Origin: Eledone cirrhosa
Taxonomy: Eukaryota
Direction of reading: 5' to 3'
DNA: 64,000 nucleotides
Assembly (NCBI GenBank): GCA_964016885.1
Contig: OZ024740.1
Location: forward strand, 77,872,001 to 77,936,000
The notes beneath the pieces are model-generated. The model was not told where the DNA came from. It ran no database searches and worked only from the letters and a program-made list of their open reading frames with translations. The position numbers and the translations under genes are program-made. Positions 5,051 to 60,400 of this stretch are shown one piece after another (position 1 is the stretch's first letter; each line of letters starts with the position of its first letter).

Positions 5051-5230
5051 CATTTGTTTCAATCAACGAAATTGTCTGTTCGTAAAGTTTGTCTTTCTCA
5101 AGGATATGATGCGCCGCCTGGTCCGAGAATCGAACTCCCAACTATACAATCGTGAACCCAGTGCTCTAACCATTACACCACGCGCCTTCACACCCATACA
5201 CAAACACATACATACATATACATACATACA

Positions 5231-5838: not shown

Positions 5839-5916
5839 CATACATACATACATACATACATACATACATACATACACACATACATACATACATACATACA
5901 TACATACATACACACA

Positions 5917-6524
5917 TGGTGGCTGCCAACTCGTTTTCGAGTACGACCACTACTTTATATCCATGTAGGAGAACCCCTACCGATGCGCTGAACGAGTGTG
6001 ACTTTTTAGTCCAGCCAGCGACTTGAAAACTCTGGTACAAACACTACACTTGTGACAACTATTGACACATAGTGTTGGGCCCATGGTACCATGTGACGAC
6101 AAGTGCGGAGAGATCTCCAGATATAAAGCAATGCCTGTGCCGTGAAGCTTTTATAGTGAGCAAAGGCACTGCACAAAGCCAGTCCCACTCTCTTAACCAA
6201 GATGATATTTACCAAAAAGAAGAACTAGTCAACATCATTGGATACCATCAGGGTTGCAGGTGTTATATCAGAGTTTTCCTTCTCCTAGAATTCTGCCTTG
6301 ACAAAGGCTAAGGGGTCATCTCTCCCAGTGATTTTGGATGGCCATTGACACTTAAGAGCTCCTTTGCCCTTTGACAGGTTTTGTTTTTAGTCCTGCAGGA
6401 TGTCCAAAGTCACCCTCCTCACCAAGAAACCTTGATGGGGTTGCCAGTTTAGTCGCCAACGACCCGACCATGAGACAGGTTGTACTGGGATACATGTTAC
6501 CAGTAGCACCAACTGGTGACCTGA
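5917..6524 (-). mobile_element. RTE-derived family 1, full-length copy in tandem with the previous one
   Basis: Near-identical to 5231-5838, separated by about 80 bp of (CATA)n. Confidence 0.85.
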
Positions 6525-12472: not shown

Positions 12473-12473
12473 T

Positions 12474-15400: not shown

Positions 15401-18397
15401 TATAGTACTGTAGACACTGTAGTACTGTAAATATTGTAGTACGGTAGACACTATAGTATTGTAGACACTATAGTATTGTAGTATTGTAGACAATAGTATT
15501 GTAGATACTGTATTATTGTAGGGACTATAGTACTGTAGACACAGTAGTATTGTAGACACTGTAGTATTGCAGACACTCAAGTAATGTAGCCACTGTAGTA
15601 GTGTAGACACTGTAGTACTATATACACTGTAGTTCTGTGGACACTATAGTACTGTAGACACTGTAGTACTGTAGACACTATAGTGCTCTACACAGTGTAG
15701 TACTGTAGACACTATAGTACTGTAGACATTATAGTACTGTAGACACTATACTACTGTAGACACTATAGTACTGTAGACACTGTAGTACTGTAGACACTAT
15801 AGTAGTGTAGACGGTATAATACTGTAGACACTGTAGTACTATAGACATTGTAGTACTGTAGACACCATAGTATTGTAGACACTATAGTATTGAAGTACTG
15901 TAGATACTATAGTATAGTAGACACTATATTACTGCAGACACTGTAGTACTATAAACACTGTATTACTGTAGTCACTATAGTACTGTAGACACAGTACTAC
16001 TGTAGACTCTGTATTACTGTAGACACTGTAGTACTGTAGACACTGTAGTACTGTAGACACTATAGTACTGTAGACACGGTAGTTCTGTAGACACTATAGT
16101 ACTGTCGACACTGTAGTACTGTAGACACTATAATACTGAAGGCACTGTAGTATTGTAGGCACTGTAGCATTGTTGACACTATAGTACTGTAAACACTATA
16201 GTACTGTAGACACAGTAGTATTGTAGACACTCAAGTAGTGTAGACACTGTAGTAGTGTAGACACTGTAGTACTATATACACTGTAGTTCTGTAGACACTA
16301 TAGTACTGTAGACACTGTAGTACTGTAGACACTGTAGTACTGTAGACACTATAGTACTGTAGACACTGTAATACTGTAGACACTATAGTAGTGTAGACAC
16401 TAGTATTGTAAACACTGTAGTATTGTAGACACTATAGTACTGTAGACATTGTAGTACTGTAGACACTGTAGTACTGTAGACACTGTAGTACTGTAGACAC
16501 TATAGTACTGTAGACACTGTATTACTGTAGACACTATCGTAATGTAGACACTAGTATTGTAGACACTATAGTATTGTAGACACTATAGTACTGTAGACAC
16601 TGTAGTAGTGTAGACACTATAATACTGTAGACACTATAGTATTGTAGACACTATAGTATTGTAGACGCTGTAGTACTGTAGTCACTGTAGTATTTTAGAC
16701 ACTATAGTACTGCAAGCACCGTAGTAGTGTAGACACTATAGTACTGTAGACACTATAGTATTGTAGACACTATAGTACTGTAGACACTATAGTACTGTAG
16801 ACACTATAGTATTGTAGACACTATAGTACTGTAGACACTATAGTACTGTAGACACTATAATACTGTAGACACTGTAGTACTGTAAACATTGTAGTACTGT
16901 AGACACTATAGTATTGTAGTATTGTAGACAATAGTATTGTAGATACTATCGTACTATAGACACTGTAGAACTGTAGACACTATAGTATTGTAGACACTAT
17001 AGTATTGTATACATTATAATACTGTAGATATTGTAGTACTGTAGACACTATAGCACTGTAGATACTATAGTACTGTAGACACTGTAGTACTATAGACACT
17101 GTAGTACTGTAGACACTTTAGTATTGTAGACACTGTAGTACTGTAGACACTATAGTACTGTAAACACTATAGTACTGTAGACACTGTATTATTGTAGGGA
17201 CTATAGTACTGTAGACACAGTAGTATTGTAGACACTGTAGTATTGCAGACACTCAAGTAGTGTAGACACTGTAGTAGTGTAGACACTGTAGTACTATATA
17301 CACTGTAGTTCTGTGGGCACTATAGTACTCTAGACACTGTAGAACTGTAGACACTATAGTGCTCTAGACAGTGTAGTACTGTAGACACTATAGTACTGTA
17401 GACACTATAGTACTTTAGACACTATACTACTGTAGACACTATAGTACTGTAGTCACTGTAGTACTGTAGACACTATAGTACTGTAGACGCTATAATACTG
17501 TAGACACTGTAGTACTATAGACATTGTAGTACTGTAGACACCATAGTATTGTAGACACTATAGTATTGAAGTACTGTAGACACTATAGTATAGTAGACAC
17601 TATATTACTGCAGACACTGTAGCTCTATAAACACTGTATTACTGTAGTCACTATAGTACTGTAGACACAGTACTACTGTAGACTCTGTATTACTGTAGAC
17701 ACTGTAGTACTGTAGACACTGTAGTACTGTAGACACTATAGTACTGTAGACACGGTAGTTCTGTAGACACTATAGTACTGTCGACACTGTAGTACTGTAG
17801 ACACTATAATACTGAAGGCACTGTAGTATTGTAGGCACTGTAGCATTGTTGACACTATAGTATTGTAGACACTGTAGTACTGTAGGCACTATAGTACTAT
17901 AGACACTATAATACTGTAGACACTGAAGTATTGTAGACACTATAGTACTGTAGACACTATAGTACTGTAGACACTATATTACTGCAGACACTATAATACT
18001 ATAAACACTATAGTGTTGTAGACTATATAGTACTGCAGTCACTATAATACTGTAAACCCTATAGTATTGTAGACACTGTAATACTGTAGACACTGTATTA
18101 CTGTTGACACTATAGTACTGTAGACACTGTAGTACTGTAGATACTATAGTATTGTAGACACTATAGTACTGTAGACACTGTAGTACTGTAGACACTGTAG
18201 TACTGTAGACACTATAGTATTGTAGACACTATAGTACTGTAGACACTGTAGTACTGCAGACACTATAGTACTGTAGACACTATAGTACTGTAGACACTAT
18301 AGTACTGTAGACACCTTAGTAGTGTAGACACTATAGTACTGTAGACACTATAGCATTGTAGACACTGTAGTACAGTAGACACTGTAGTACTGTAGAC
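12474..18397 (+). repeat. 17-bp minisatellite array, ~5.9 kb, consensus GACACT(G/A)TAGTACTGTA
   Basis: Direct reading; the 17-aa periodicity (STVLQCLQYYSVYSTIV) of the spurious ORFs equals 3 x 17 nt. Confidence 0.97.
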
Positions 18398-20868: not shown

Positions 20869-20910
20869 CATACATACATACATACATACATACATACATA
20901 CATACATACA

Positions 20911-22008
20911 TCATTGGCTCACAGGAGGACAGAAATACGAACCTAACCCATAATTTCTTTGTAGATGATTTGAGACGCTATGCCAAGAACATGGATGGGA
21001 TGAAGAAAAATCAACGTTCTCAAAGGACATAGGAATGGAGTTTGGCCAAGATAAATGCTCATATATGACTGTAAAGCGGGGAAAACCACAACCCAATCTA
21101 GAAACATTGTCATCAATGACCTGACTGTTTCACCGATATCTGATGAGGACTGCTACAGATACCTGGGGATAGATGAGAACATATCCTATAATGGTATCTG
21201 TAATAAAGAACGCGTAACCAGGGAATACTAGACCCGATTAAGAAAGATTTGGTCATCGGAACTCTCTGCGCAAAACAAAACAGTGGCTTACAATGGGTTT
21301 GCTGTGTCTGTCCTATCACCAACGTTTGGAATACTCAATTGGACGATAGACGAAATCCGAGCAGTTGATGTTGGAACTCGAAAAATACTAAACAACACCG
21401 GAACCTTGCACATCAACTGTGACATAGACCGCCTTTACTTGAAACGTAATCAGGGAGGCAGAGGCCTAACATTAGTCCAGACAGCATTTGAATGTCGCAT
21501 CATATCCCTCTGACAACATCTACGATTAGAGATTAGAGAAAAGGAGAACATTTATGCGGAACTGATGAGATATCTGCAGATACTCCACCCTGATTACACC
21601 TTCAGATGTGTGTCTGTTATTATTGGGACACTGGGGTATGTTAGTAACTGCCTCAATACAAATCTTGAGAAGCTAGGCTTCACAGGAACAGAAAGAACAC
21701 AACTAGTTAGGAAATTACAAGTACAATCTATTAATGGAACAGTAAAAATATGTAAAACATTCCAAAAATGTTGCATCTAATAACTGCATATACACATTTA
21801 CAGATACAAAGCATATACACATGCACACATACAACTCAAAACATACACATCCACACATACAATAACATCCATATCTACACATGCAGGCATGCATACATAA
21901 TCTACCTAGTTGATGTTGTGTAAATTCGAATGAGAGAGGCTTGTGTCTATGTTAGAAACCGACTCTCTCTCTCTATTTGTAAACATTTGTGAAATTATAA
22001 AACCAGAA
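20911..22008 (+). mobile_element. R4/Dong-like LINE lineage 1, 5'-truncated and internally deleted
   Basis: 20911-21525 matches RT-region 57586-58211 (THNFFVDD...YRYLG...); it then jumps to EKENIYAELMR...KICKTF and the 3'UTR ending gaaattataaaaccagaa(cata)n. Confidence 0.9.
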
Positions 22009-28145: not shown

Positions 28146-28175
<30 letters not shown>

Positions 28176-28176
<1 letters not shown>

Positions 28177-28765
28177 GGTGGCTGCCAACTCGTTTTCGAG
28201 TACGGCTACTACTTTATATCCATGTAGGAGAACCCCTACCGATGCGCTGAACGAGTGTGACTTTTTACTCCAGCCAGCGACTTGAAAACTCTGGTACAAA
28301 CACTACACTTGTGACAATTATTGACACATAGTGCTGGGCCCATGGTACCATGTGACGACAAGTGCAGAGAGATCTCCAGATATAAAGCAATGCCTGTGCC
28401 GTGAAGCTTTTATAGTGAGCAAAGGCACTGCACAAAGCCAGTCCCACTCTCTTAACCAAGATGATATTTACCAAAAAGAAGAACGAGTCAACATCATTGG
28501 ATACCATCAGGGTTGCAGGTGTTATATCAGAGTTTTCCTTCTCCTAGAATTCTACCTTGACAAAGGCTAAGGGGTCATCTCTCCCAGTGATTTTGGATGG
28601 CCATTGACTCTCAAGAGCTCCTTTGCCCTTTGACAGGTTTTGTTTTTAGTCCTGCAGGATGTCCAAAGAAACCTTGGTGGGATTGCCAGTTTAGTCGCCA
28701 ACGACCCAACCATGAGACAGGTTGTACTGGAATACATGTTACCAGTAGCACCAACTGGTGACCTG
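28176..28765 (-). mobile_element. RTE-derived family 1, near full-length (small internal deletion)
   Basis: Near-identical to 5231-5838; flanked by (CATA)n. Confidence 0.85.
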
Positions 28766-34467: not shown

Positions 34468-34491
34468 CATAGATACATACATACATACATA

Positions 34492-34686
34492 TACACATGC
34501 ACACATACAACTCAAAACATACACATCCACACATACAATAACATCCATATCTACACATGCATGCATACATACATATCTACTTAGTTGATGTTGTGTAAAT
34601 TCCAATGAGAGAGTCTTGTGTCTATGTTAGAAACCGACTCTCTCTCTCTATTGGTAAAACTTTGTGAAATTATAAAACCAGAAGAA
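34492..34686 (+). mobile_element. R4/Dong-like lineage 1, 3'UTR-only copy
   Basis: acatacaactcaaaacatacacatcc...gaaattataaaaccagaagaa(cata)n. Confidence 0.85.
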
Positions 34687-34752
34687 CATACATACATACA
34701 TACATACATACATACATACATACATACATACATACATACATACATACATACA

Positions 34753-35347
34753 TGGTGGCTGCCAACTCGTTTTCGAGTACGGCCACTACTTTATCTCCAT
34801 GTAGGAGAACCCCTACCGATGTACTGAACGAGTGTGACTTTTTAGTCCAGCCAGGGACTTGAAAACTCTTGTACAAACATTACACTTGTGACAATTATTG
34901 ACACATAGTGCTGGGCCCATGGCACCATGTGACGACAAGTGCAGAGAGATCTCCAGATATAAAGCAATGCCTGTGCCGTGAAGCTTTTATAGTGCATAAG
35001 GCCAGTCCCACTCTCTTAACCAAGATGATATTTTCTAAAAAGAAGAACAAGTCAACATCATTGGATACCATCAGGGTTGCAGGTGTTATATCAGAGTTTT
35101 CCTTCTCCTAGAATTCTACCTTGACAAAGGCTAAGGAGTCATCTCTCCCAGTGATTTTGGATGGCCATTGACCCTTAAGAGCTCCTTTGCCCTTTGACAG
35201 GTTTTGTTTTTAGTCCTGCAGGATGTCCAAAGTCACCCTCCTCACCAAGAAACCTTGGTCGAGTTGCCAGTTTAGTCGCCAACGACCCGACCATGAGACA
35301 GGTTATACTGGGATACATGTTACCAGTAGCACCAACTGGTGACCTGA
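34753..35347 (-). mobile_element. RTE-derived family 1, near full-length
   Basis: As 5231-5838. Confidence 0.85.
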
Positions 35348-35436
35348 CATACATACATACATACATACATACATACATACATACATACATACATACATAC
35401 ATACATACATACATACATACATACATACATACATAC

Positions 35437-36307
35437 CTGATTCATAAAAGAGATAGGGATGCAGGCAAAACACCTAGATGTGATAACAAGTGCAGACTCT
35501 GCAGAACTAACATCGAGGATATCACCCATGTCATCAGCAGCTGCCCAAAGATGTCATCGCGGTACTATCTACCTATGAGGCATGATGTAGTGGCCAAAAC
35601 ACTGTACAATGCAGTTCGTAAAAAAGATAGCCCCGATGATAAACACATTAAAAGCTACAACAATGTGGAAGACATCCATGTACATAATATGAAAGAGTAC
35701 TGGTGGAATGTTCCAGTAAAAACCACAATAAAATGCAGGCATAACAGACCAGATATTATGATATGGGACAGGGAGAAGAAAACATGCACAGTAGTGGAAA
35801 TTAGCTGCCCAGCAGATGCCAATAAAATATCAAAGTTTAGTGAAAAGGAGAATATTTATGCAGAACTGATGAGAAATCTCCAGATACTCCACCCTGATTA
35901 CACCTTCAGATTTATGCCTGTGATTATTGGGGCACTGGGATATGTTAGTAACTGCCTCAATACAAATCTTGAGAAGCTAGGCTTCACAGGAACAGAAAGA
36001 ACACAACTAGTTAGGAAATTACAAGTACAATCCATTACTGGAACAGTAAAAATATGTAAAACATTCCAAAAAGTTTGCATCTAATAACTGAATATACACA
36101 TGTACAGATACAAAGCATATACACATGCACACATACAACTCAAAACATCCACATCCACACATACAATAACATCCATATCTACACATGCATGCAGACATAC
36201 ATATCTACCTAGTTGATGTTGTGTAAATTCCAATGAGAGTCTTGTGTCTATGTTAGAAACCGACTCTCTCTCTATTGGTAAAACTTTGTGAAATTATAAA
36301 ACCAGAA
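35437..36307 (+). mobile_element. R4/Dong-like lineage 1, 5'-truncated, with intact CCHC and RLE coding region
   Basis: Open frame CRLCRTNIEDITHVISSC...MRHDVVA...RPDIMIWD...VVEISCP...EKENIY...KICKTFQKVCI*, followed by the 3'UTR and (CATA)n. Confidence 0.93.
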
Positions 36308-36333
36308 CATACATACATACATACATACATACA

Positions 36334-36386
<53 letters not shown>

Positions 36387-41176: not shown

Positions 41177-41715
41177 TGCTACTGGTGCTACTGGTAACAA
41201 GGTTTCTTGGTGAGGAGGGTGACTTTGGACATCCTGCAGGACTAAAAACAAAACCTGTCAAAGGGCAAAGGAGCTCTTAAGAGTCAATGGCCATCCAAAA
41301 TCACCGAGAGAGATGACACCCTAGCCTTTGTCAAGGCAGAATTCTAGGAGAAGGGAAACTCTGATATAACACCTGCAACTCTGATGGTATCCAATGATGT
41401 TGACTTGTTCTTCTTTTTGGTAAATATCATCTTGTTTAAGAGAGTGGGACTGGCTTTGTGCAGTGCCTTTGCTCACTATAAAAGCTTCACGGCACAGGCA
41501 TTGCTTTATATCTGGAGATCTCTCTGCACTTGTCGTCACATGGTACCATGGGCCCAGCACTATGTGTCAATAATTGTCACAAGTGTAGTGTTTGTACCAG
41601 AGTTTTCAAGTCGCTGGCTGGAATAAAAAGTCACATTCGTTCAGCGCATCGGTAGGGGTTCTCCTACATGTATATAAAGTAGTGGCCGTACTCGAAAACG
41701 AGTTGGCAGCCACCA
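41177..41715 (+). mobile_element. RTE-derived family 1, rearranged 5' end
   Basis: Plus-strand copy between (TATG)n runs; ends gagttggcagccacca-tgtatgtatg. Confidence 0.85.
41548..41655 (+). other. 35-aa C2H2 zinc-finger mini-ORF within RTE-derived family 1 (remnant of an RTE ORF C-terminus)
   Basis: ACC-ATG-G context; MGPALCVNNCHKCSVCTRVFKSLAGIKSHIRSAHR* matches C-x2-C-x3-F-x8-H-x4-H. Confidence 0.6.
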
Positions 41716-41815
41716 TGTATGTATGTATGTATAGGTAGGTAAGTATGTGTATACAGATATATATGTATGTAACATCATATGTGTATGTTTTTATTTGTGT
41801 GGTTGTATACAAGTG

Positions 41816-42034: not shown

Positions 42035-45000
42035 AACTGTTGTTTTTGTTGCCCTTGTTGTTGTCGTCATTGTAGTTGTTAGTGTTGTTGTTGTCGTCAT
42101 TGTAGTTGTTAGTGTTGTTGTCACTGTCGTTTTTGTCATCGTTGTAGCTGTTAGTGTTGTTGTTGTTGTCACTGTCGTTGTTAGTGTTGTTGTTGTCGTC
42201 ATTGTAGTTGTTAGTGTTGTTGTTGTTGTCACTGTCGTTGTTAGTGCTGTTGTTAGAGTTGTTGTTGTTGTTGTTGTTGTTGTCACTGTCGTTGTCATCA
42301 TTGTAGATATTAGTGTTGTTGCTGCTGTCGGTGATATTGTTGCTGCTGTCGGTGCTATTGTTGCTGCTGTTGTTGTTGTTGTTGCTGCTGTTGGTGCTAT
42401 TGTTGCTGCTGTCGGTGCTATTGTTGCTGCTGTCGGTGCTATTGTTGCTGCTGTTGTTGTTGTTGTTGTTGCTGCTGTTGGTGCTATTGTTGCTGCTGTT
42501 GGTGCTGTTGTTGCTGCTGTTGTTGTTATTGTTGCTGCTGTCGGTGCTATTGTTGCTGCTGTTGGTGCTATTGTTGCTGCTGTCGGTGCTATTGTTGCTG
42601 CTGTTGATGCTATTGTTGCTGCTGTTGTTGTTATTGTTGCTGCTGTTGGTGCTATTGTTGCTGCTGTCGGTGCTATTGTTGCTGCTGTCGGTGCTATTGT
42701 TGCTGCTGTTGTTGTTATTGTTGCTGCTGTCGGTGCTATTGTTGCTGCTGTTGGTGCTATTGTTGCTGCTGTCGGTGCTATTGTTGCTGCTGTTGGTGCT
42801 ATTGTTGCTGCTGTTGTTGTTATTGTTGCTGCTGTTGGTGCTATTGTTGCTGCTGTCGGTGCTATTGTTGCTGCTGTCGGTGCTATTGTTGCTGCTGTTG
42901 TTGTTATTGTTGCTGCTGTCGGTGCTATTGTTGCTGCTGTTGTTATTGTTGCTGCTGTCGGTGTTATTGTTGCTGCTGTCGGTGCTATTGTTGCTGCTGT
43001 TGGTGCTATTGTTGCTGCTGTCGGTGCTATTGTTGCTGCTGTTGGTGCTATTGTTGCTGCTGTTGTTGTTATTGTTGCTGCTGTCGGTGCTATTGTTGCT
43101 GCTGTTGGTGCTATTGTTGCTGCTGTCGGTGCTATTGTTGCTGCTGTTGGTGCTATTGTTGCTGCTGTTGTTGTTATTGTTGCTGCTGTCGGTGCTATTG
43201 TTGCTGCTGTCGGTGCTATTGTTGCTGCTGTTGGTGCTATGGTTGCTGCTGTTGTTGTTATTGTTGCTGCTGTCGGTGCTATTGTTGCTGCTGTCGGTGC
43301 TATTGTTGCTGCTGTCGGTGCTATTGTTGCTGCTATCGGTGATATTGTTGCTGCTGTTGTTATTGTTGCTGCTGTTGTTATTGTTGCTGCTGTCGGTGCT
43401 ATTGTTGCTGCTGTCGGTGTTATTGTTGCTGCTGTTGTTGTTGCTGCTGCTGTCGGTGCTATTGTTGCTGCTGTTGTTGTTATTGTTGCTGCTGTCGGTG
43501 CTATTGTTGCTGCTGTTGGTGCTATTGTTGCTGCTGTCGGTGCTATTGTTACTGCTGTTGTTATTGTTGCTGCTGTCGGTGCTATTGTTGCTGCTGTCGG
43601 TGTTATTGTTGCTGCTGTTGTTGTTGTTGTTGCTGCTGTCGGTGCTATTGTTGCTGCTGTTGGTGCTATTGTTGCTGCTGTTGTTGTTGTTGTTGTTGCT
43701 GCTGTCGGTGCTATTGTTGCTGCTGTTGTTGTTGTTGTTGTTGCTGCTGTTGATGCTATTGTTGCTGCTGTTGTTATTGTTGTTGCTGCTGTCGGTGCTA
43801 TTGTTGCTGCTGTTGGTACTATTGTTGCTGCTGTTGTTGTTGTTGCTGCTGTCGGTGCTATTGTTGCTGCTGTTGGTGCTATTGTTGCTGCTGTTGTTGT
43901 TATTGTTGCTGCTGTTGTTGTTATTGTTGCTGCTGTCGGTGCTATTGTTGCTGCTGTCGGTACTATTATTGCTGTTGTTGTTATTGTTGCTGCTGTTGGT
44001 GCTATTGTTGCTGCTGCGGTGCTATTGTTGCTGCTGTTGGTGCTATTGTTGCTGCTGTTGTTTGTGTTGCTGCTGTTGTTGTTATTGTTGCTGCTGTCGG
44101 TGTTATTGTTGCTGCTGTTGTTGTTATTGTTGCTGCTGTTGGTGTTATTGTTGCTGCTGTTGGTGCTATTGTTGCTGCTGTTGGTGCTATTGTTGCTGCT
44201 GTCGGTGTTATTGTTGCTGCTGTCGGTGCTATTGTTGCTGCTGTTGTTGTTATTGTTGCTGCTGTCGGTGTTATTGTTGCTGCTGTTGTTATTGTTGCTG
44301 CTGTCAGTGCTATTGTTGCTGCTGTTGTTGTTATTGTTGCTGCTGTTGGTGCTATTGTTGCTGCTGTTGGTGCTATTGTTGCTGCTGTCGGTGCTATTGT
44401 TGCTGCTGTTGGTGCTATTGTTGCTGCTGTTGTTGTTATTGTTGCTGCTGTCGGTGCTATTGTTGCTGCTGTCGGTGCTATTGTTGCTGCTGTCGGTGCT
44501 ATTGTTGCTGCTGTCGATGTTATTGTTGCTGCTGTCGGTATTATTGTTGCTGCTGTCGGTGCTATTGTTGCTGCTGTCGGTGCTATTGTTGCTGCTGTCG
44601 GTGTTATTGTTGCTGCTGTCGGTGCTATTGTTGCTGCTGTCGGTATTATTGTTGCTGCTGTCGGTGCTATTGTTGCTGCTGTCGGTGTTATTGTTGCTGC
44701 TGTCGGTGCTATTGTTGCTGCTGTTGTTATTGTTGCTGCTGTCAGTGCTATTGTTACTGCTGTCGGTGTTATTGTTGCTGCTGTTGTTGTTGTTGCTGCT
44801 GTCGATGCTATTGTTGCTGCTGTTGGTGCTATTGTTGCTGCTGCTGTTGTTGTTATTGTTACTGCTGTTGGTGCTATTGTTGCTGCTGTCTGTGCTATTG
44901 TTGCTGCTGTTGTTGTTATTGTTGCTGCTGTCGGTGCTATTGTTGCTGCTGTCGGTGCTATTGTTGCTGCTGTCGGTGATATTGTTGCTGCTGTTGTTGT

Positions 45001-48000
45001 TATTGTTGCTGCTGTTGGTGCTATTGTTGCTGCTGTTGGTGCTATTGTTGCTGCTGTTGTTGTTATTGTTGCTGCTGTCGGTGCTATTGTTGCTGCTGTC
45101 GGTGCTATTGTTGCTGCTGTCGGTGCTATTGTTGCTGCTGTCGGTGATATTGTTGCTGCTGTCGGTGCTATTGTTGCTGCTGTTATTATTGTTGCTGCTG
45201 TCGGTGCTATTGTTGCTGCTGTCGGTGCTATTGTTGCTGCTGTCGGTGCTATTGTTGCTGCTGTTGTTGTTATTGTTGCTGCTGTCGGTGCTATTGTTGC
45301 TGCTGTTGGTGCTATTGTTGCTGCTGTCGGTGCTATTGTTGCTGCTGTTGATGCTATTGTTGCTGCTGTTGTTGTTATTGTTGCTGCTGTTGGTGCTATT
45401 GTTGCTGCTGTCGGTGCTATTGTTGCTGCTGTCGGTGCTATTGTTGCTGCTGTTGTTGTTATTGTTGCTGCTGTCGGTGCTATTGTTGCTGCTGTTGGTG
45501 CTATTGTTGCTGCTGTCGGTGCTATTGTTGCTGCTGTTGGTGCTATTGTTGCTGCTGTTGTTGTTATTGTTGCTGCTGTTGGTGCTATTGTTGCTGCTGT
45601 CGGTGCTATTGTTGCTGCTGTCGGTGCTATTGTTGCTGCTGTTGTTGTTATTGTTGCTGCTGTCGGTGCTATTGTTGCTGCTGTTGTTATTGTTGCTGCT
45701 GTCGGTGTTATTGTTGCTGCTGTCGGTGATATTGTTGCTGCCATCGGTGCTATTGTTGCTGCTGTTGTTGTTATTGTTGCTGCTGTCGGTGCTATTGTTG
45801 CTGCTGTCGGTGCTATTGTTGCTGCTGTTGGTGCTATGGTTGCTGCTGTTGTTGTTATTGTTGCTGCTGTCGGTGCTATTGTTGCTGCTGTCGGTGCTAT
45901 TGTTGCTGCTGTCGGTGCTATTGTTGCTGCTATCGGTGATATTGTTGCTGCTGTTGTTATTGTTGCTGCTGTTGTTATTGTTGCTGCTGTCGGTGCTATT
46001 GTTGCTGCTGTCGGTGTTATTGTTGCTGCTGTTGTTGTTGCTGCTGCTGTCGGTGCTATTGTTGCTGCTGTTGTTGTTATTGTTGCTGCTGTCGGTGCTA
46101 TTGTTGCTGCTGTTGGTGCTATTGTTGCTGCTGTCGGTGCTATTGTTACTGCTGTTGTTATTGTTGCTGCTGTCGGTGCTATTGTTGCTGCTGTCGGTGT
46201 TATTGTTGCTGCTGTTGTTGTTGTTGTTGCTGCTGTCGGTGCTATTGTTGCTGCTGTTGGTGCTATTGTTGCTGCTGTTGTTGTTGTTGTTGTTGCTGCT
46301 GTCGGTGCTATTGTTGCTGCTGTTGTTGTTGTTGTTGTTGCTGCTGTTGATGCTATTGTTGCTGCTGTTGTTATTGTTGTTGCTGCTGTCGGTGCTATTG
46401 TTGCTGCTGTCGGTGCTATTGTTGCTGCTGTCGGTGCTATTGTTGCTGCTGTTGGTGCTATTGTTGCTGCTGTTGTTGTTATTGTTGCTGCTGTTGTTGT
46501 TATTGTTGCTGCTGTCGGTGCTATTGTTGCTGCTGTCGGTACTATTATTGCTGTTGTTGTTATTGTTGCTGCTGTTGGTGCTATTGTTGCTGCTGCGGTG
46601 CTATTGTTGCTGCTGTTGGTGCTATTGTTGCTGCTGTTGTTTGTGTTGCTGCTGTTGTTGTTATTGTTGCTGCTGTCGGTGTTATTGTTGCTGCTGTTGT
46701 TGTTATTGTTGCTGCTGTTGGTGTTATTGTTGCTGCTGTTGGTGCTATTGTTGCTGCTGTTGGTGCTATTGTTGCTGCTGTCGGTGTTATTGTTGCTGCT
46801 GTCGGTGCTATTGTTGCTGCTGTTGTTGTTATTGTTGCTGCTGTCGGTGTTATTGTTGCTGCTGTTGTTATTGTTGCTGCTGTCAGTGCTATTGTTGCTG
46901 CTGTTGTTGTTATTGTTGCTGCTGTTGGTGCTATTGTTGCTGCTGTTGGTGCTATTGTTGCTGCTGTCGGTGCTATTGTTGCTGCTGTTGGTGCTATTGT
47001 TGCTGCTGTTGTTGTTATTGTTGCTGCTGTCGGTGCTATTGTTGCTGCTGTCGGTGCTATTGTTGCTGCTGTCGGTGCTATTGTTGCTGCTGTCGATGTT
47101 ATTGTTGCTGCTGTCGGTATTATTGTTGCTGCTGTCGGTGCTATTGTTGCTGCTGTCGGTGCTATTGTTGCTGCTGTCGGTGTTATTGTTGCTGCTGTCG
47201 GTGCTATTGTTGCTGCTGTCGGTATTATTGTTGCTGCTGTCGGTGCTATTGTTGCTGCTGTCGGTGTTATTGTTGCTGCTGTCGGTGCTATTGTTGCTGC
47301 TGTTGTTATTGTTGCTGCTGTCAGTGCTATTGTTACTGCTGTCGGTGTTATTGTTGCTGCTGTTGTTGTTGTTGCTGCTGTCGATGCTATTGTTGCTGCT
47401 GTTGGTGCTATTGTTGCTGCTGCTGTTGTTGTTATTGTTACTGCTGTTGGTGCTATTGTTGCTGCTGTCTGTGCTATTGTTGCTGCTGTTGTTGTTATTG
47501 TTGCTGCTGTCGGTGCTATTGTTGCTGCTGTCGGTGCTATTGTTGCTGCTGTCGGTGATATTGTTGCTGCTGTTGTTGTTATTGTTGCTGCTGTTGGTGC
47601 TATTGTTGCTGCTGTTGGTGCTATTGTTGCTGCTGTTGTTGTTATTGTTGCTGCTGTCGGTGCTATTGTTGCTGCTGTCGGTGCTATTGTTGCTGCTGTC
47701 GGTGCTATTGTTGCTGCTGTCGGTGATATTGTTGCTGCTGTCGGTGCTATTGTTGCTGCTGTTATTATTGTTGCTGCTGTCGGTGCTATTGTTGCTGCTG
47801 TCGGTGCTATTGTTGCTGCTGTCGGTGCTATTGTTGCTGCTGTTGTTGTTATTGTTGCTGCTGTTGGTGCTATTGTTGCTGCTGTCGGTGCTATTGTTGC
47901 TGCTGTCAGTGCTATTGTTACTGCTGTTGTTATTGTTTCTGCTGTCGGTGCTATTGTTGCTGCTGTCGATGTTATTGTTGCTGCTGTTGTTGTTGTTGCT

Positions 48001-48395
48001 GCTGTCGATGCTATTGTTGCTGCTGTTGTTGTTATTGTTGCTGCTGTCGTTGTTATTGTTGCTGCTGTTGGTGCTATTGTTGCTGCTGTTGTTGTTATTG
48101 TTGCTGCTGTTGGTGCTATTGTTGCTGCTGTTGTTGTTATTGTTGCTGCTGTCGGTGCTATTGTTGCTGCTGTCTGTGCTATTGTTGCTGCTGTCGGTGC
48201 TATTGTTGCTGCTGTCAGTGTTATTGTTGCTGCTGTCGGTGCTATTGTTGCTGCTGTCGGTGCTATTGTTGCTGCTGTCGGTGCTATTGTTGCTGCTGTT
48301 GTTGCTGTTGCTGCTGTCGGTGCTATTGTTGCTGCTGTTGTTGTTGTTGCTGCTGTTGGTGCTATTGTTGCTGCTGTTGTTGTTGGTGGTAGTGT
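42035..48395 (+). repeat. 21-bp minisatellite array, ~6.3 kb, consensus GCTATTGTTGCTGCTGT(C/T)GGT with (GTT)n variants
   Basis: Direct reading; the antisense frame reads (TAATIAP)n. Confidence 0.97.
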
Positions 48396-50145: not shown

Positions 50146-51007
50146 ATCTCTTTCTCTTAATTTGAGTATATTTTTTTGACCGGCCACCTTCCTGGTGGCA
50201 AGGTTGTAAAAGAAAAGAAATTGTCATCCCTTGAATCGCAAGAATGTTTTGCAAATTTTGAAGGTGCCAGCTATCGCAGCCATTTGTAGACTATGAATTA
50301 GGGAGTTGCGCTCTTTGTCCGCAAATCCAAGTTCAGTCATACTTTGGTCCAAGCGGGTTGGTATATAACCCGTAGCTCCAATATTGATGGGTATGAAGCT
50401 AAAGGTGTATCTTGGATACTGGATTTGTAAACTCCTCATCAATGGTCCGTAGATGTCCTCCTTCTGCTGTATTTTTCTGACAACGTTTACATCAAGTGGG
50501 CAGCTGATCTCCACAACAGAACACGTTTTCAATGTGTGGTCCCAAACAACAATATCAAGCCGGTTGTGCTTTAATTTGGTGGCAGTTTTTATTTTCAGGT
50601 TCCACCAGTATTCCTTAGTGCCATCTGTCTCAATATATTCTTCCTCGTTTGTTGTTAATTTTGTTTTCCGAAGTGCGTTCCAGATGGTTCTAGCTATCCC
50701 ATCGTCTCTCATGGGGAGGTAGTAGCGAGATGACATTCTTTCGCAGCTGGCAACAATGTGGCTTACATCCTCGATCTTTGTTTTACATAGCCTACATTTA
50801 TTGTCAGGTGATGGCCCTCCCCTTTTGTGCAGCAGATATTTGGTAGGGAGTTCTTGTTCCTGTATTGCATAGAGATATCCCTCAAGGTGTGATGTCATAA
50901 ACTTGTCGGAACTCCATGCCAGGCTTTTTGAGTGGTTTATCCCATCTATGGTCTGCGTTTTACGTCTCAAGTATCCATGCACAACTTTTTCTGTAAATTG
51001 GTCAATT
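50146..51007 (-). mobile_element. R4/Dong-like LINE lineage 2, 5'-truncated
   Basis: ORF 50224-50982: EGYLYAIQEQEL.TK...CRLCKTKIEDVSHIVASC...MRDD...RLDIVVWD...VVEISCP...KEDIY...KICKTFLRFKG; distinct 3'UTR with a gccacc/ggtggc hairpin. Confidence 0.9.
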
Positions 51008-51110
51008 ATGTATGTATGTATGTATGTATGTATGTATGTATGTATGTATGTATGTATGCAAGTATTTGTGTATGTATGTATGCAAGTATTTGTGTATGTA
51101 TGTATGTATG

Positions 51111-51144
<34 letters not shown>

Positions 51145-51208
51145 TGTATGTATGTATATAGGTATGTGTATGTATGTATGTATGTATGTATGTATGTATG
51201 TATGTATG

Positions 51209-52105
51209 TTCTTCTGCTTTTATAATTTCACAAATTTTTTCCCATAGAGAGAGAGTCGGTTTCTAACATAGACACAAGACTCTCTCATTGGAATTTACAC
51301 ATCAACTAGGTAGATTATGTATGCATGCATGCATGTGTAGATATGGATGTTATTGTATGTGTGGATGTGTATGTTTTGAGTTGTATGTGTGCATGTGTAT
51401 ATGCTTTGTATCTGTACATGTGTATATGCAGTTATTAGATGCAAAATCTTTGGAATGTTTTACATACTTTTACTGTTCCAGTAATGGATTGTACTTGTAA
51501 TTTCCTAACTAGTTGTGTTCTTTCTGTTCCTGTGAAGCCTAGCTTCTCAAGATTTGTATTGAGGCAGTTACTCAGTGCCCCAATAATCACAGGCATAAAT
51601 CTGAAGGTGTAATCAGTTCTGCATAAATATTCTCCTTTTCTTTAATCTTTAATATTATATTGGCATCTGCTGGGCAGCTAATTTCCACTACTGTGCATAC
51701 TTTCTTCTCCCTGTCCCATATCATAATATCTGGTCTGTTACGCCTGCATTTTATTGGGTTTTTACTGGAACATTCCACCAGTACTCCTTCATATTATGTA
51801 CATGGATGTCTTCCACATTGTTGTAGCTTTTAATGTGTTTATTATCGGGGCTATCTTTTTTACGAACTGCATTGTACAGTGTTTTGGCCACTACATCATG
51901 CCTCATAGGTAGATAGTACCGCGATGGACAGCTGCTTATGACATGGGTGATATCCTCGATGTTAGTTCTGCAGAGTCAGCACTTGTTATCACATCTAGGT
52001 GTTTTGCTGCAGCCCTATCTCTTTTGTGAATCAGGTATTTCGTGTTAATCTCCTGTTCTTGGATTGCAAAAGCGTATCCTTTAAAGTGGGAGCCATATAG
52101 CGGTT
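51209..52105 (-). mobile_element. R4/Dong-like lineage 1, 5'-truncated with small deletions
   Basis: Reverse complement of about 58478-59400; bounded by (TATG)n. Confidence 0.9.
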
Positions 52106-52129
52106 GTATGTATGTATGTATGTATGTAT

Positions 52130-52862
52130 ATAATTGTCACAAGTGTAGTGTTTGTACCAGATGTTTCAAGTCGCTGGCTGGTCTAAAAAGTCACACTCGT
52201 TCAGCGCATCGGTAGGGGTTCTCCGACATGGATATAAAGTAGTGGCCGTACTCGGAAACGAGTTGGCAGCCACCATGTATGTATGTATCCCAGTACAACC
52301 TGTCTCATGGTCGGGTCGTTGGCGACTAAACTCCCCCCCCCCACCAAGGATTCTTGGTGAGGAGGGTGACTTTGGACATCCTGCAGGACTAAAAACAAAA
52401 CCTGTCAAAGGGCAAAGGAGCTCTTAAGAGTCAATGGCCATCCAAAATCACCGGGAGAGATGACCCCTTAGCCTTTGTCAAGGCAGAATTCTAGGAGAAG
52501 GAAAACTCTGATATAACACCTGCAACCCTGATGGTATCCAATGATGTTGACTTGTTCTTCTTTTTGGTAAATATCATCTTGGTTAAGAGAGTGGGACTGG
52601 CTTTGTGCAGTGCCTTTGCTCACTATAAACGCTTCACGGCACAGGTATTGCTTTATATCTGGAGACCTCGCTGCACTTGTCGTCACATGGTACCATGGGC
52701 CCAGCACTATGTGTCAATAATTGTCACAAGTGTAGTGTTTGTACCAGAGTTTTCAAGTCGCTGGCTGGACTAAAAAGTCACACTCGTTCAGCGCATCGGT
52801 TGGGGTTCTCCTACATGGATATAAAGTAGTGGCCGTCCTCGAAAACGAGTTGGCAGCCACCA
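52130..52862 (+). mobile_element. Two 5'-truncated RTE-derived family 1 copies in tandem (52130-52275, 52286-52862)
   Basis: Both end gagttggcagccacca; each begins within (TATG)n. Confidence 0.85.
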
Positions 52863-53192
52863 TATAGGTATGTATGCATGGATATATGTATGTATATATA
52901 TGTATGCATATATTTGTATATGTATGAATGTAAGTATGCATGTATGTATATAGGTATATATGTATGTATGTATTTATGTATGTTTGTATGAATATAGCTA
53001 TGTATGTATATATGTGCGTTTGTATGTATGCATGTATATATGTATGTATATATGTATGTATGCGTGTATGTGTGTGTGTATGTGTATATGTGTGTATGTA
53101 TATATGTATGTGTGTGTGTATGTATGTATGTATGTGCCTAAGTGTAAACGTCCGAGTGTGTGTATTGTATTACATAGGTTTATGCGTGTTAA

Positions 53193-53254
<62 letters not shown>

Positions 53255-53430
53255 AGTGTATGTTGAAGAATATATATCGTCCTTTAGTAGATTATCACTA
53301 ATGTTGTGATCTGTGATTTATACATACATAGACACACACACATACATACATACACACATACATACATACATACATACATACATACATACATACATACATA
53401 CATACATACATACTTACATACATACATACA

Positions 53431-53831
53431 CCTTCAGATTTATGCCTGTGATTATTGGGGCACTGAGTAACTGCCTCAATACAAATCTTGAGAAGCTAGG
53501 CTTCACAGGAACAGAAAGAACACAACTAGTTAGGAAATTACAAGTACAATCCATTAATGAAACAGTAAAAATATGTAAAACATTCCAAAGATTTTGCATC
53601 TAATAACTGTATATACACATGTACAGATACTAAGCATATACACATGCACACATACAACTCAAAACATACACATCCACGCATACAATAACATCCATATCTA
53701 CACATGCAAACATGCAGACATATCTACCTAGTTGATGTTGTGTAAATTCCAATGAGAGAGTCTTGTGTCTATGTTAGAAACCGACTCTCTCTCCATTGGT
53801 AAATCTTTGTGAAATTATAAAACCAGAAGAA
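53431..53831 (+). mobile_element. R4/Dong-like lineage 1, 3' fragment
   Basis: TFRFMPVIIGAL...KICKTFQRFCI* followed by the 3'UTR and (CATA)n. Confidence 0.9.
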
Positions 53832-54186: not shown

Positions 54187-54432
54187 GCCCCATAGTGGAA
54201 ATCAGTAGCCCAGCAGATGTCAATATAATGCTAAAGATTAGCGAAAAAGAGAGTAATTATGCTGAACTAATGAGGAATCTGCAGATACTCTACCCTCACT
54301 ATACCTTTAGATTTGTACCTGTGGTCATGAGGGCTCATGGATATGTTAGTAATTGCCTCAGTACACATCTTGAAAGGATAGACTTCACAGAACCAGAAAG
54401 AACATGGTTAATTAGGAAGTTGCAAGTACAGA
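54187..54432 (+). mobile_element. Diverged R4/Dong-like RLE fragment
   Basis: IVEISSPADVNIMLKISEKESNYAELMRNLQILYPHYTFRFVPVVM...LIRKLQVQT. Confidence 0.8.
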
Positions 54433-54471
54433 CCATACATACATACATACATACATACATACATACATACA

Positions 54472-55290
54472 AGACTCTGCAGAACTAACATCGAGGATAT
54501 CACCCATGTCATCAGCAGCTGTCCAAAGATGTCATTGCGGTACTATCTACCTATGAGGCATGATATAGTGGCCAAAACACTGTACAATGCAGTTCGTAAA
54601 AAAGATAGCCCCGATAATAAACACATTAAAAGCTACAGCAATGTGGAAGACATCCATGTACGTAATATGAAAGAGTACTGGTGGAATGTTCCGGTAAAAA
54701 CCCCAATAAAATGCAGGCATAACAGACTAGCTATTATGATATGGTACAGGGAGAAGAAAGCATGCACGGTAGTGGAAATTAGCTGCCCAGCAGATGCCAA
54801 TATAATATCAAAGATTACTGAAAAGGAGAATATTTATGCAGAACGGATGAGATATCTGCAGATACTCCACCCTGATTAGACCTTCAGATTTATGCCTGTG
54901 ATTATTGGGGCACTGAGGTATGTTAGTAACTGCCTCAATACAAATATTGAGAAGCTAGGCTTCACAGGAACAGAAAACACAACTAGTTAGGAAATTACAA
55001 GTACAATCCATTAATGGAACACTAAAAGTATGTAAAACATTCCAAACATTTTGCATCTAATAACTGCATATACACATGTACAGATACAAAGCATATACAC
55101 ATGCACACATACAACTCAAATCATACACATCCACACATACAATAACACCCATATCTACACATGCATGCATACATACATATCTACCTAGTTGATGTTGTGT
55201 AAATTCCAATGAGAGAGTCTTGTGTCTATGTTAGAAACCGACTCTCTCTCTCTATTGGTAAAACTTTGTGAAATTATAAAACCAGAAGAA
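54472..55290 (+). mobile_element. R4/Dong-like lineage 1, 5'-truncated
   Basis: LCRTNIEDITHVISSC...MRHD...VEISCP, an in-frame stop at about 54877, then the 3'UTR. Confidence 0.9.
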
Positions 55291-55375
55291 CATACATACA
55301 TACATACATACATACATACATACATACATACATACATACATACATACATACATACATACATACATACATACATAC

Positions 55376-58300
55376 AACTACAGCCATGTTGAATAACTGG
55401 TTATTCTTCTAACTATATCTACTGAAGACACCTTTTATTCGAATTCGTAGAGATATCCGACTAAATACATAATTCATTTTACAAGGATTTGCTACAAACA
55501 GCATGGCTTAACACAACATCAACAACAAAATTAAGGAAGTACCGAAGACAAATAACAAGGAAGGTAAACAAACTTTATTCAGTTGTAGCTACAGAAGAAA
55601 CCGAAATTATAAATCGCATTTCTCTTGGAGTTGCGAACTTAATAATGATTTATTTAATTGTTATAATAATGTCAAAAAACAATCCCTCTATTGGCTATAT
55701 GAACAGAATGAAGCTACACTGGGGCAAAATGCACGCAGAGCTAAATTATTTCACAGCGAAACAATTACGTCAACAAGCGACGCTTGTTGAACGTAAAAAT
55801 AAGATAAATATTATTAATTGTAAGTCCCCCACAACAAATATGTTATCAACAACACGTGCTACAGGTCGCCATGCTACTAGACTTCCTAACAGCCAGGTCG
55901 AACAGTGCCTTGAAGCAACTATGCCTGTAAGAAATTTGACACCACCTGTACCATCTAAGTCTACCTCGAATGCTGAGGAAAACACTATCGATAATAATAA
56001 TAATCGAAGAAATAATAATAATAATCGAAGAAATTTGACACCACGTGTACCATCCGAGTCTACCTCGACTGTTGTGGAAAATACTATCGATAAAGATAAT
56101 CAAAAGTATAAACAATTGAAAATTTCCCTCAACGAAATCTTACAGAGAGAAATTAATTTATGTATAAATATCTCTCTTGCTGAACGTATTAAAACGACAA
56201 TGTTTAATAAAAAACCAAATAATGAAATATTACGTGTTATTGACGAAATAGGGGATGAATATTTACGAAGGATAAAAAACCCAACATTTTGGCAAATCAA
56301 CGCCTGTTTATATGCCTTAGCAACGACAGTGAAGCATTATCTTGGTGATAGCAGAGATATTAAGAACAGAACACCACCAAAAATACCATCATATATAACT
56401 AAAATAGAAAAAAAGATTGCTGACCTACGAAAAAACATAGGATATGTGACAATGCTCCTTACATGCAAACAAACACAAAAAAAACTCACTTCTCACCAAC
56501 AAAAAGTGAAAAATAAAATAGAGACGATGTTTGGTAACAGTAGAACCAGAACTTTCCAATATAAGCTGATCACCCTCAAACAAGAATTGAGAGCTGGTAG
56601 CGAAAAACGCCGAAACCTGAAGAAGGTAGATGAGAGAAAAGTGCTTAATAAAAGATTCAGACGAAACCAAACATCAGTCTATAGAGATATGAAGGGCAAA
56701 ATAATAAGTGTCACTGAGGCCCCATCCCAGAAAGACATAGATTCCTTTTGAAGCAAAATATGGAGTGAAAAGAAGAATTTCAACCAAGATGCAGTGTGGC
56801 TAAGAGAAATCCGAAAGGACTATTGCTCCTACACTATTACAAAAACATACGAAATAAGTGAGGGTACACTTGAGACTGTGATAGGAAAACTCCAAGATAA
56901 GAAAACACCAGGAAGAGACATAATTGTTGGCTACTGGTACAAAAAACTGATATTCTATCGCAGGTATTCTATCGGAGGCATCTTACTGACCTCTACCAAC
57001 AAGTTCTTAAGGGAGATACACTTATACCAGAATCGTTGACATTAGCACAAAAATTACTGGTCCCCAAGAACAAAGACACCCACTTGGCAAAAAACTACCG
57101 ACCCATTGCATGCCAGAACCTGATGTATAAGATGTATACAGCCTGCCTGAACCTATTCCTCCAAGATCACTGTGAAAATAATAGCATCATCACAGATGAA
57201 CAAGCAGCTGGAAAGAAAGGGGTTTGGGGATGTGCTGAACAACTCCTAATCAACAAAACTGCGATGTCGGAGGTGCGACAACTTAGGAGGAATATGGCTA
57301 CAGTCTGGCTGGACTACAGGAAAGCTTTCGATTCTGTTCCCCACTCTTGGATGATAGAGGCCCTCCAACTTGCTAAAGTCCCAGACATTATTGTCAGAGC
57401 CATAGAGAGGCTGTCTTCTTCTTGGGCTACTATCCTAAGGTTAACGACAGAGAGGGAGGACTCTATTTTCACTGATAAAATAAAATATTGCAGGGGTATA
57501 TTTCAGGGGGACAGTCTCTCTGTGATATTATTCATCTTGTCATTAAACCCCTTGTCCTTTCTGCTCAAGAAATGTGAGGGATACATCATTGGCTCACAGT
57601 TCAGAAATACGAACCTAACCCATAATTTCTTTGTGGACGATCTGAAACTCTATACCAAGAACATGGATGGGGTGAAGAAAAATCTTGACCTGGTTACAAC
57701 GTTCTCAAAGGATATAGGAATGGAGTTTGGCCAAGATAAATGCTCATACATGACTGTAAAGCGGGGAAAAACAACAACCCAATCTAGCAACATCGTCATC
57801 AATGGCCTAACTGTTTCACCGATATCTGATGAGGTCTGCTACAGATACCTGGGGATAGATGAGAACATATCCTATAATGGTATCTGTAATAAAGAACGCG
57901 TAACCAGGGAATACTACACCCGATTAAGAAAGATTTGGTCATCGGAACTCTCTGCGCAAAACAAAACAGTGGCTTACAATGGGTTTGCTGTGCCTGTCCT
58001 AACACCAACGTTTGGTATACTCAATTGGACGATAGACGAAATCCGAGCAGTTGATGTTGGAACTGGAAAAATACTAAAAAACACCGGAACCTTCCACATC
58101 AACAGTGACATCGTCCGCCTTTACATGAAACGTAAGCAGGGAGGCAGAGGCCTAACATCAGTCCAGACAACATTTGAATGTCGCATCATATATCTCCGAC
58201 AACATCTACGAACTTCGAAGCGTAGGAGCCCGTTTCTCGAGCAAGTCTATCTGCATGAAACAGATAAGATCATGAGAGTTGGGAAGGAACTCCTCGAGAG

Positions 58301-59401
58301 ATATTGCCTGTGTGATAATCAAAAACTCACACCCAGGGATGTCGCTCAGCAGTATCGCAGTGAATCCATGGATGAAAAACTGCATGCTTATCAGCAAAAG
58401 ATCATGCATGCATATGTTGCCAGGAAGCTCCAGAGTGAGAGTAATATAGATAAGGAAAGTAGTCTATCTTGGACCAACAACCGCTATATTGGCTCCCACT
58501 TTGAAGGATACGCTTTTGCAATCGAAGAACAGGAGATTAACACGAAATACCTGATTCACAAAAGAGATAGGGATGCAGGCAAAACACCTAGATGTAATAA
58601 CAAGTGCAGACTCTGCAGAACTAACATCGAGGATGTCACCCATGTCATCAGCAGCTGTCCAAAGATGGCATAGCGGTACTATCTACCTATGAGGCATGAT
58701 ATAGTGGCCAAAACACTGTACAATGCAGTTCGTAAAAAAGATAGCCCCGATAATAAATACATTAAAAGCTACAGCAATGTGGAAGACATCCATGTACATA
58801 ATATGAAAGAGTACTGGTGGAATGTTCCAGTAAAAGCCCCAATAAAATGCAGGCATAACAGACCAGATATTATGATATGGGACAGGGAGAAGAAAACATG
58901 CACAGGCGTGAAAATTAGCTGCCCAGCAGATGCCAATATAATATCAAAGATTACTGAAAAGGAGAATATTTATGCAGAACGGATGAGAAATCTACAGATA
59001 CTCCACCCTGATTACACCTTCAGATTTATGCCTGTGATTATTGGGGCACTGGCGTATGTTAGTAACTGCCTCAATACAAATCTTGAGAAGCTAGGCTTCA
59101 TATGAACAGAAAGAACACAACTAGTTAGGAAATTACAGTAAAAATATGTAAAACATTCCACAAATTTTGCATCTAATAACTGCATGTACACATGTACAGA
59201 TGCAAAGCATATACACATGCATATATACAACTCAAAACATGCACATCTACACATACAATAACATCCATATCTACACATGCATGCATACATACATATCTAC
59301 CTAGTTGATGTGTAAATTCCAATGAGAGAGTCTTGTGTCTATGTTAGAAACCGACTCTCTCTCTATTGGTAAAACTTTGTGAAATTATAAAACCAGAAGA
59401 A
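55376..59401 (+). mobile_element. Near full-length R4/Dong-clade non-LTR retrotransposon (~4.0 kb) in (CATA)n
   Basis: Single ancestral ORF: N-terminal GYM.RMK..W...H.EL..FT.KQLRQQ (R4-type Myb-like), F[W>*]SKIWS, RT motifs NYRPIAC, WLDYRKAFDSVPH, GIFQGDSLS, FVDDLKLY, YRYLG, then CCHC, RHD and RPDIMIWD..KISCP..KENIY; (CATA)n at both ends. Confidence 0.95.
55489..59175 (+). pseudogene. Disrupted RT-RLE polyprotein of the R4/Dong-like element
   Basis: Segments 55489-56751, 56794-57039, 57036-58673 and 58689-59105; premature stops at 56749, 58671 and 59103, and a frameshift from the tandem duplication tattctatcg at about 56950-56975. Confidence 0.9.
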
Positions 59402-59515
59402 CATACATACATACATACATACATACATACACAGACACATACATACATACATACATACATACATACATACATACATACATACATACATACATACATACAT
59501 ACTTCCATACACACA

Positions 59516-60035
59516 TGATGGCTACACAAACTCTGCTAAGAGTATTGCAATCCCTTGTCAGATTATAGAGTTTGGTGCACTTTTAGGCTACGGCCAGCCA
59601 CACAAACCTGTAACAGATCCAGAACAAGCAATGCCTGTGCTTTGAAGATTTTTAAGTGGGGAAAGGCCTTGCACTCGACCAATCCCATTCTCTGAGCATC
59701 GAAAACACTACCCGAAAAGGAGAACTTGTCCAGATCATCGGATGCTTCCGAAGCCGCAGGTATTTTTCAGAGTTTCCCTCTTTTAGAAAGGTGTTGTGAG
59801 AACTGGAGGCCATTCACTCCCAGGTTTTAAAAAAAAGTACTATTTGGATGGCAGTTGTCTCTGCTGAGTTCCTCCGCCCTTTGTCGGGTCATGTATTTTA
59901 TCACGCAGGATGTCCAAAAATCTCCCTCCTCACCAAGCAAGGTTGGTGGGGTTGCCGGTTTAGTCACCGACGACCCGACCATGAGACAAGTTGTACTGGG
60001 TTACATGTTACCAGTAGCATTCGAGAGTGACCTGA
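59516..60035 (-). mobile_element. RTE-derived family 3, full-length
   Basis: The minus strand starts tcaggtcactctcgaatgctactggtaac and ends actcttagcagagtttgtgtagccatca; flanked by (CATA)n. Confidence 0.8.
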
Positions 60036-60065
60036 CATAACATACATACATGCATACATACATAC

Positions 60066-60225
60066 AAGTTAAATTACAGTCCATTGATGGATGTAAAAAT
60101 ATGTAAAACATTTCAGAAATTCAGCATGTAATAACTGTATATACACATGTGTAGATACAAAACATATGCACTTATACATATACAACTGAAAATATACAGA
60201 TCCACACATGCAATAACATCCATAC

Positions 60226-60308
<83 letters not shown>

Positions 60309-60400
60309 TATATCCAGACATATGTATTTACCTAGTTTAATCTTGTTCGTATGTTAGAAACCGACTCTGTCTCTCTTTCTCTATTTGGACAAAATTATCA
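60066..60400 (+). mobile_element. Old R4/Dong-like 3' fragment
   Basis: gtccattgatggatgtaaaaatatgtaaaacatt...tatgttagaaaccgactct matches the lineage 1 ORF end and 3'UTR. Confidence 0.7.

Follow-up and report, generated by a model that had tools for sequence, protein, structure and literature searches.

A dead copy of an abundant R4/Dong-like retrotransposon lying between (CATA)n arrays in Eledone cirrhosa

The window analysed here is a 64-kb stretch of the Eledone cirrhosa genome, and it contains a 4,025-bp copy of an R4/Dong-like non-LTR retrotransposon (55377-59401, plus strand; hereafter the window copy) with (CATA)n arrays at both ends, one of about 22 units on the 5' side, taken as the target (55290..55376, plus strand), and one on the 3' side (about 59402..59516, plus strand). 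The window copy is truncated by 86 bp at its 5' end as compared with 29 other genomic copies that reach a common start further upstream. The remainder of the 5' UTR (55377..55502) is followed by a single ORF (55503..59176; 1,229 codons in the family majority sequence), which is broken by four stops (55509, 56749, 58671 and 59103) and three frameshifts (about 55667, 56951-56964 and 59134). The ORF carries an RxY motif with a predicted three-helix Myb-like domain (55593..55815, the end being approximate and the frameshift near 55667 crossing the domain), a reverse transcriptase (RT) core (57063..57854; Pfam RVT_1, E 2.6e-24), a CCHC zinc knuckle of the form C-x2-C-x8-H-x4-C (58605..58658) and the RPD...E...K core of a restriction-like endonuclease (RLE; 58860..58979), in which the conserved acidic position near 58911, an E, is replaced by K. 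The 3' UTR (59177..59401) is CA-rich, ends in CCAGAAGAA and includes an inverted repeat at about 59319-59369 that was spotted by eye and not by folding. The window copy differs by 2.2% from a 13-copy majority sequence; it is a defunct member of an abundant LINE family, with a slight 5' truncation. The single-ORF element of about 4 kb proposed in the first-pass annotation was thereby confirmed in extent, and sibling copies do supply sequence across some of its damage. The damage is heavier than the few lesions, two with sibling codons, that had been described: seven lesions break the ORF, and the siblings in the window cover just the three most 3' of them. With four lesions lacking sibling cover in the window and the 5' 86 bp absent, the claim that the element can be largely reconstructed from the window was overstated.

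Seven copies with complete 3' ends were present in the window, the window copy and six siblings. A 5'-truncated sibling lies directly upstream of the window copy and shares its array (54472..55290, plus strand), and other 5'-truncated siblings lie between CATA arrays (53427..53831, plus strand), on the opposite strand with arrays that read CATA on its own strand (51209..52107, minus strand), at about 35433..36307 (plus strand) and, with an internal deletion, at 20906..22008 (plus strand). The sixth is a short 3' UTR piece whose start is ambiguous within CA-rich sequence (34488..34686, plus strand). The copy given in the earlier annotation as 35437-36307 was indeed open through the CCHC and RLE, over 216 codons. 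All seven copies end in CCAGAA(GAA) and run directly into CATACATA, in agreement with the 3' ends first described, the extra GAA being present in five and absent in two and the minus-strand copy having one substitution within the end motif; CATA repeats also lie 5' of all seven. Besides, the array 3' of the 35433 copy (36308-36386) consists of (CATA)7 and then (CTTA)n, the latter being the repeat targeted by the family's nearest relatives elsewhere. A related R4-like subfamily is represented by more diverged pieces (77-86%) at 54195-54424, ending in a CATA array at 54434, and at 60040-60377. A zf-RVT match in a frame of 330 codons (50224-51219, minus strand) falls immediately downstream of the minus-strand copy and probably marks another LINE fragment.

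Short elements, about 500-600 bp in length, also adjoin many of the window's arrays. X1, a 596-bp non-autonomous element that is likely RTE-derived, occupies the same arrays in the opposite direction (34752..35347, minus strand). Its copies, often 5'-truncated, lie between (TATG)n arrays on the minus strand (5230-5838, 5916-6524, 28175-28765, 34752-35347), and copies of the same kind occur on the plus strand (41198-41716, 52283-52863). Families X2 and X3 are related to X1 and have its middle in common, and an X3 element abuts the 3' array of the window copy in the opposite direction (59517..60040, minus strand). The X elements have one fixed and one variable end, from which their orientation was read as opposite to that of the LINE, and they carry arrays at both ends in mirror orientation to it. 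The 3' end of X1 had 12,652 exact matches in the genome, and an X-type end, searched with a loose pattern, was found within 250 nt downstream of 30/93 copies of the LINE. A 5'-truncated LINE fragment (L115:1150-2080) with C-terminal C2H2 fingers has its 3' part in common with X1 and stands back to back with the window LINE family across one array; no RT was seen for this fragment. From its motifs and by analogy with an octopus RTE that has a C2H2 finger and a 3' microsatellite (PMC9115989), the X1 family is likely RTE-like, presumably with an endonuclease different from the RLE of the LINE.

The 24-mer at the 3' end of the LINE had 2,634 exact matches in its own genome (3.0 Gb) and its reversed control had 0. 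Among these rows 2,118 reach CATACATA after at most 4 nt; double listings make up a few percent (3 among 100 rows shown). Twenty loci were fetched as a full-length set, of which 12 were complete, and with the window copy these made up the 13-copy majority sequence of 4,129 bp with its one open frame running from the first ATG. The copies differed from it by 1.6-4.7%, in a set biased toward close matches. Intact ORFs elsewhere, a check named in the first-pass annotation, were looked for in 190 own-genome loci, a small sample of thousands of copies, and none was found among them; the longest stop-free frame in these loci had 1,134 codons and belonged to a 5'-truncated copy starting in microsatellite, and one genomic copy spanned 1,223 codons interrupted by one stop. 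For a full-length copy, 30/30 bins were covered by contigs from four public runs (three studies), and the depth over them rises toward the 3' end, as 5' truncation predicts.

Beyond the window, the R4/Dong-like architecture held up in its RT, CCHC and RLE and in a structural match to R2. Models were built with alignments from the two open pieces of a single genomic copy. The model of the C-terminal half had a pLDDT of 93 and matched R2 structures best (E 3e-16, TMq 0.67), against just 7e-4 for L1. Over 57 aligned rows the CCHC and the P and K of the endonuclease core were conserved in 57/57 and the D in 56/57. No APE endonuclease was matched in Pfam, the C-terminus having an RLE fold instead. 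The model of the N-terminal half showed a confident three-helix unit at residues 44-98 followed by a disordered linker. The C2H2/CCHC pattern is absent from this unit, which can be aligned with N-terminal regions of proteins from Bombyx and other insects. Pfam Myb had no match in 40 proteins and Foldseek with the N-terminal half returned RT matches only, and the same region of the relative L191 lies nearest to Myb clusters by features (Atlas 0.84), a lead by which the domain may be called Myb-like.

The flanks were examined at the first 100 sites of the 24-mer listing, all on one contig, and 93 were kept after dropping five in the window, one with its 5' end outside its locus and one that was unfetched. 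At least two pairs of near-duplicates are among the 93, and an array was called where at least two same-strand (CATA) units stood at the junction. Same-strand (CATA)n followed the 3' end in 88/93 copies outside the window and preceded the 5' end in 77/93, that is in 15/15 full-length and 62/78 truncated copies, as compared with 159/2,790 (about 6%) at random flank positions. The antisense repeat was found at 1/93 of the 5' ends and 0/93 of the 3' ends. The truncated copies ranged from 171 to 3,958 bp in length and carried arrays on both sides irrespective of where they were cut short; the 5' array was absent in 16/78 of them, some of which look interrupted by later insertions. Of the 77 5' arrays, 11 were preceded by the 3' end of another LINE copy, 23 by an X element and 42 by neither, and one stood at the edge of its locus. 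The repeat as a 3' tail only was ruled out, truncated copies having 5' arrays too: a tail alone cannot place the repeat before arbitrary truncation points, hence the repeat behaves as a target and not just as a tail. The (CATA)n specificity first proposed from the window was borne out by these counts, which are also decisive against the contrary outcome named with it, of most copies being without (CATA)n flanks. None of the three contrary outcomes listed in that annotation was observed, the flank counts alone giving a decisive answer. There is good support for the window LINE being an RLE retrotransposon with specificity for both (CATA)n and orientation.

A protein search gave 716 relatives of at least 1,034 residues, and identity reached up to 55% among the 120 of them that were listed. 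Among the matches listed, the nearest species-labelled protein of ordinary length was an uncharacterised RT protein of Bombyx mori (35%, E 1e-102); no named Dong protein occurred among the cluster members and the Bombyx mori match is not shown to be Dong itself. From a scan of metagenome contigs 80 loci were kept. Three of these showed (CTTA)n, on both sides (L191, 54% identity), at the 5' end (L192, 52%) and at the 3' end (L194, 42%; without the Y of the RxY motif), and the three contigs may come from one host, given their shared record series. Many loci at about 30-44% identity lie near (TAA)n; this label was given to 13 loci from repeat positions, with junctions inspected for L203 and L210 only. 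The window element was far closer to the TAA-flanked and insect proteins (29-37%) than to R2. In a quick tree of 54 rows (26/80 loci, 27/120 proteins and the window element), midpoint-rooted with no outgroup and no named references, a clade of 20 rows (SH-aLRT 100, stem 0.51) took in the window element, 3/3 CTTA rows and 0/13 TAA rows. A motif R-x-Y-x(4-6)-W ahead of the first helix was present in 29/34 clade proteins and 0/86 others, the pattern having been tightened after its first version scored 19/34, and the five clade proteins that have no such motif appear to miss the N-terminal domain. The RxY is a marker of the clade, and marking a clade need not mean causing the choice of target. The CATA and CTTA elements form one well-supported branch, marked by RxY, which is likely a part of the Dong/R4 group with a preference for tetranucleotides.

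Dong is listed as TAA-specific (PMC3812793), TAA being given as its target in 'most' insects, molluscs and cnidarians (PMC7998251), and R4/Dong elements are described with a Myb/SANT-like N-terminal domain and no zinc fingers (PMC7998251). Like Dong (Bombyx Dong, DongAg, DongBg and ostracod Dong1/2, of the R4 clade), the window family has a single ORF with RT and RLE, a microsatellite target and an N-terminal domain that is Myb/SANT-like, as far as the Myb lead goes, and free of zinc fingers (PMC7998251). With the CCHC, the C-terminal position of the RLE and insertion into a microsatellite, where R4 elements enter rDNA or microsatellite, the window family likely belongs to the R4 clade. It is not Dong in the strict sense: Dong lies in (TAA)n, whereas the window family lies in (CATA)n and on a separate branch with the RxY motif. 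The R2 clade, which is defined by N-terminal zinc finger(s) with Myb and a 28S rDNA target (PMC13586686), was ruled out. R2 elements (R2Bm, R2Tg, R2Pm) offer the best structural match of the thumb-CCHC-RLE region and the model for the mechanism, whereas their RT similarity is just E 1e-24 to 1e-12, and the window family has no N-terminal zinc fingers and lies outside 28S rDNA. The R1 clade with Waldo was also ruled out by the C-terminal RLE fold and the want of an APE match in Pfam. The difference from the (TAA)n of Dong that had been suggested for the target was upheld, yet ACAY microsatellites, a class that takes in the ACAT repeat seen here, are already the target of the unrelated Waldo (WaldoAg1/2, WaldoFs1; PMC3812793). 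Waldo is an insect element of another clade with an APE-type endonuclease, so a target in common with a family that has a C-terminal RLE is convergent. Some HERO and Togen families also target microsatellites (PMC4640811). Dong-R4 elements are abundant and recently active in octopus (PMC13282606, PMC8967140), with five recently active families and 1,129 insertions in O. vulgaris (PMC13282606) and one full-ORF Dong consensus in O. bimaculoides (PMC9115989); the available portions of PMC13282606, PMC8967140 and PMC9115989 give no target sequence for them. The window family may be among these octopus families. Our literature search, with Repbase, Dfam and supplements outside its scope, found no paper that assigns Dong/R4 a tetranucleotide target. 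There are precedents for the class and the mechanism, and for the repeat motif too, and what is new here is likely a tetranucleotide target variant within known Dong/R4-type elements, with the RxY motif as an addition.

Elements of the R2 group nick their target and then reverse transcribe their RNA from the 3' OH. Following this model, we consider it probable that the window copy is a dead member of a high-copy non-LTR retrotransposon that enters (CATA)n in a fixed orientation, likely by an RLE nick of the TATG strand and target-primed reverse transcription. The N-terminal Myb-like domain with its RxY would read the repeat, the RLE would nick the TATG strand and the RNA would be reverse transcribed from that 3' OH. 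The nick would be placed so that the element's 3' end meets the array directly ahead of the C of CATA. At the 3' junction the sequence is uniform (GAACATA in 75/93), and in two relatives the base preceding CTTA differs from the A of the repeat, which sets their joint just before the C; the window family would by analogy have the same phase. Synthesis of cDNA would often stop early, its end joining the upstream array by short microhomology.

An alternative is that base pairing and not protein finds the target, a read-through (CATA)n tail of the RNA annealing to any TATG strand that is nicked or slipped. The RTE-like X elements speak for it: they too have these arrays on both sides, in mirror orientation, so that the specificity need not derive from the RLE. 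Microhomology at the 5' junctions is likewise above chance. Sixty of the 78 truncated copies could be scored, 32 being clean and 28 having unexplained bases and left out of the mean; the clean junctions overlapped the repeat by a mean of 2.0 nt against 0.83 expected, and by at least 3 nt in 9/32 against 8.9% expected (P 0.0015). Full-length 5' junctions also vary, some of them with short repeated starts. Against this account stand the uniform 3' junction, a target type that follows protein phylogeny and the N-terminal motif, and the mostly target-specific habit of RLE clades (PMC4640811). We judge it unlikely that pairing acts in place of the protein. The two can work together, and pairing of the tail may help in a way that is not separable here from protein recognition.

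The long arrays may on the other hand be a product and not a target, if the element entered short CATA-like seeds that were duplicated and then grew by slippage. Many 3' arrays of just 7-16 nt would fit, as would three loci (L123, L130, L149) at which the first 3' units recur upstream with their variant base. A periodic target hides a target site duplication, and variant duplication was seen in 10/59 copies as against 6.6 in shuffles, which was not significant (P 0.09). The lengths of the 5' and 3' arrays (medians 46 and 48 nt) were uncorrelated (rho 0.16, P 0.12), and 34/77 upstream arrays already adjoin another element, all of which makes growth from seeds very improbable. That insertion was random and escaped purging only in microsatellites, in which this genome is rich, is scarcely credible, as survival bias yields neither strand nor motif choice and is already largely refuted by the orientation bias (same-strand repeat in 77/93, antisense in 1/93, and a single repeat type occupied among the many in the genome).

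With targeted entry into (CATA)n preferred, the family would be part of a Dong/R4 branch that has left (TAA)n for C(A/T)TA repeats. A wider proposal can be put forward tentatively, and we hold it to be possible and yet doubtful: that a distinct Dong/R4 branch in multiple hosts exchanged (TAA)n targets for the tetranucleotides C(A/T)TA, that the RxY arm ahead of the Myb-like domain is the determinant, and that the landing pads are shared with RTE-like elements entering backwards. Target change in RLE retrotransposons is a standing problem that bears on gene-insertion tools, and CATA and CTTA families at 54% protein identity beside TAA relatives provide a natural contrast of one base together with a short candidate motif open to test. 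Targeting would in addition go some way toward accounting for the load of element stacks centred on CATA in the genome.

Some minor features were recorded as well. Bombyx Dong has an HDV-like ribozyme at its 5' end (PMC3774820). Rfam returned no ribozyme match in five loci with full 5' ends and four relatives, only microsatellite-driven noise of miRNA type, and our own pattern search, run with no positive control, was empty. By eye the 5' UTRs at L033:1412-1505, L192:57-145 and L191:101-190 seem alike, with a short GC hairpin and then a long AU-rich one, of which the consensus fold of the three 5' UTR starts, on a poor alignment, kept just a 4-bp hairpin, the first. The first 170 bp of the TAA-type loci L203 and L210 appeared, again by eye, to hold tRNA-like sequence directly after the repeat, L203 having no Rfam match. 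In three full-length copies (L042, L045, L053) the first bases of the element recur upstream as short repeats interspersed among CATA units, which suggests repeated template jumps at their 5' junctions. Finally, the window holds two satellites, one with a 17-bp unit in about 350 copies (12473-18397) and the other with a 21/63-bp unit and open frames of >1,500 codons (42038-48385).
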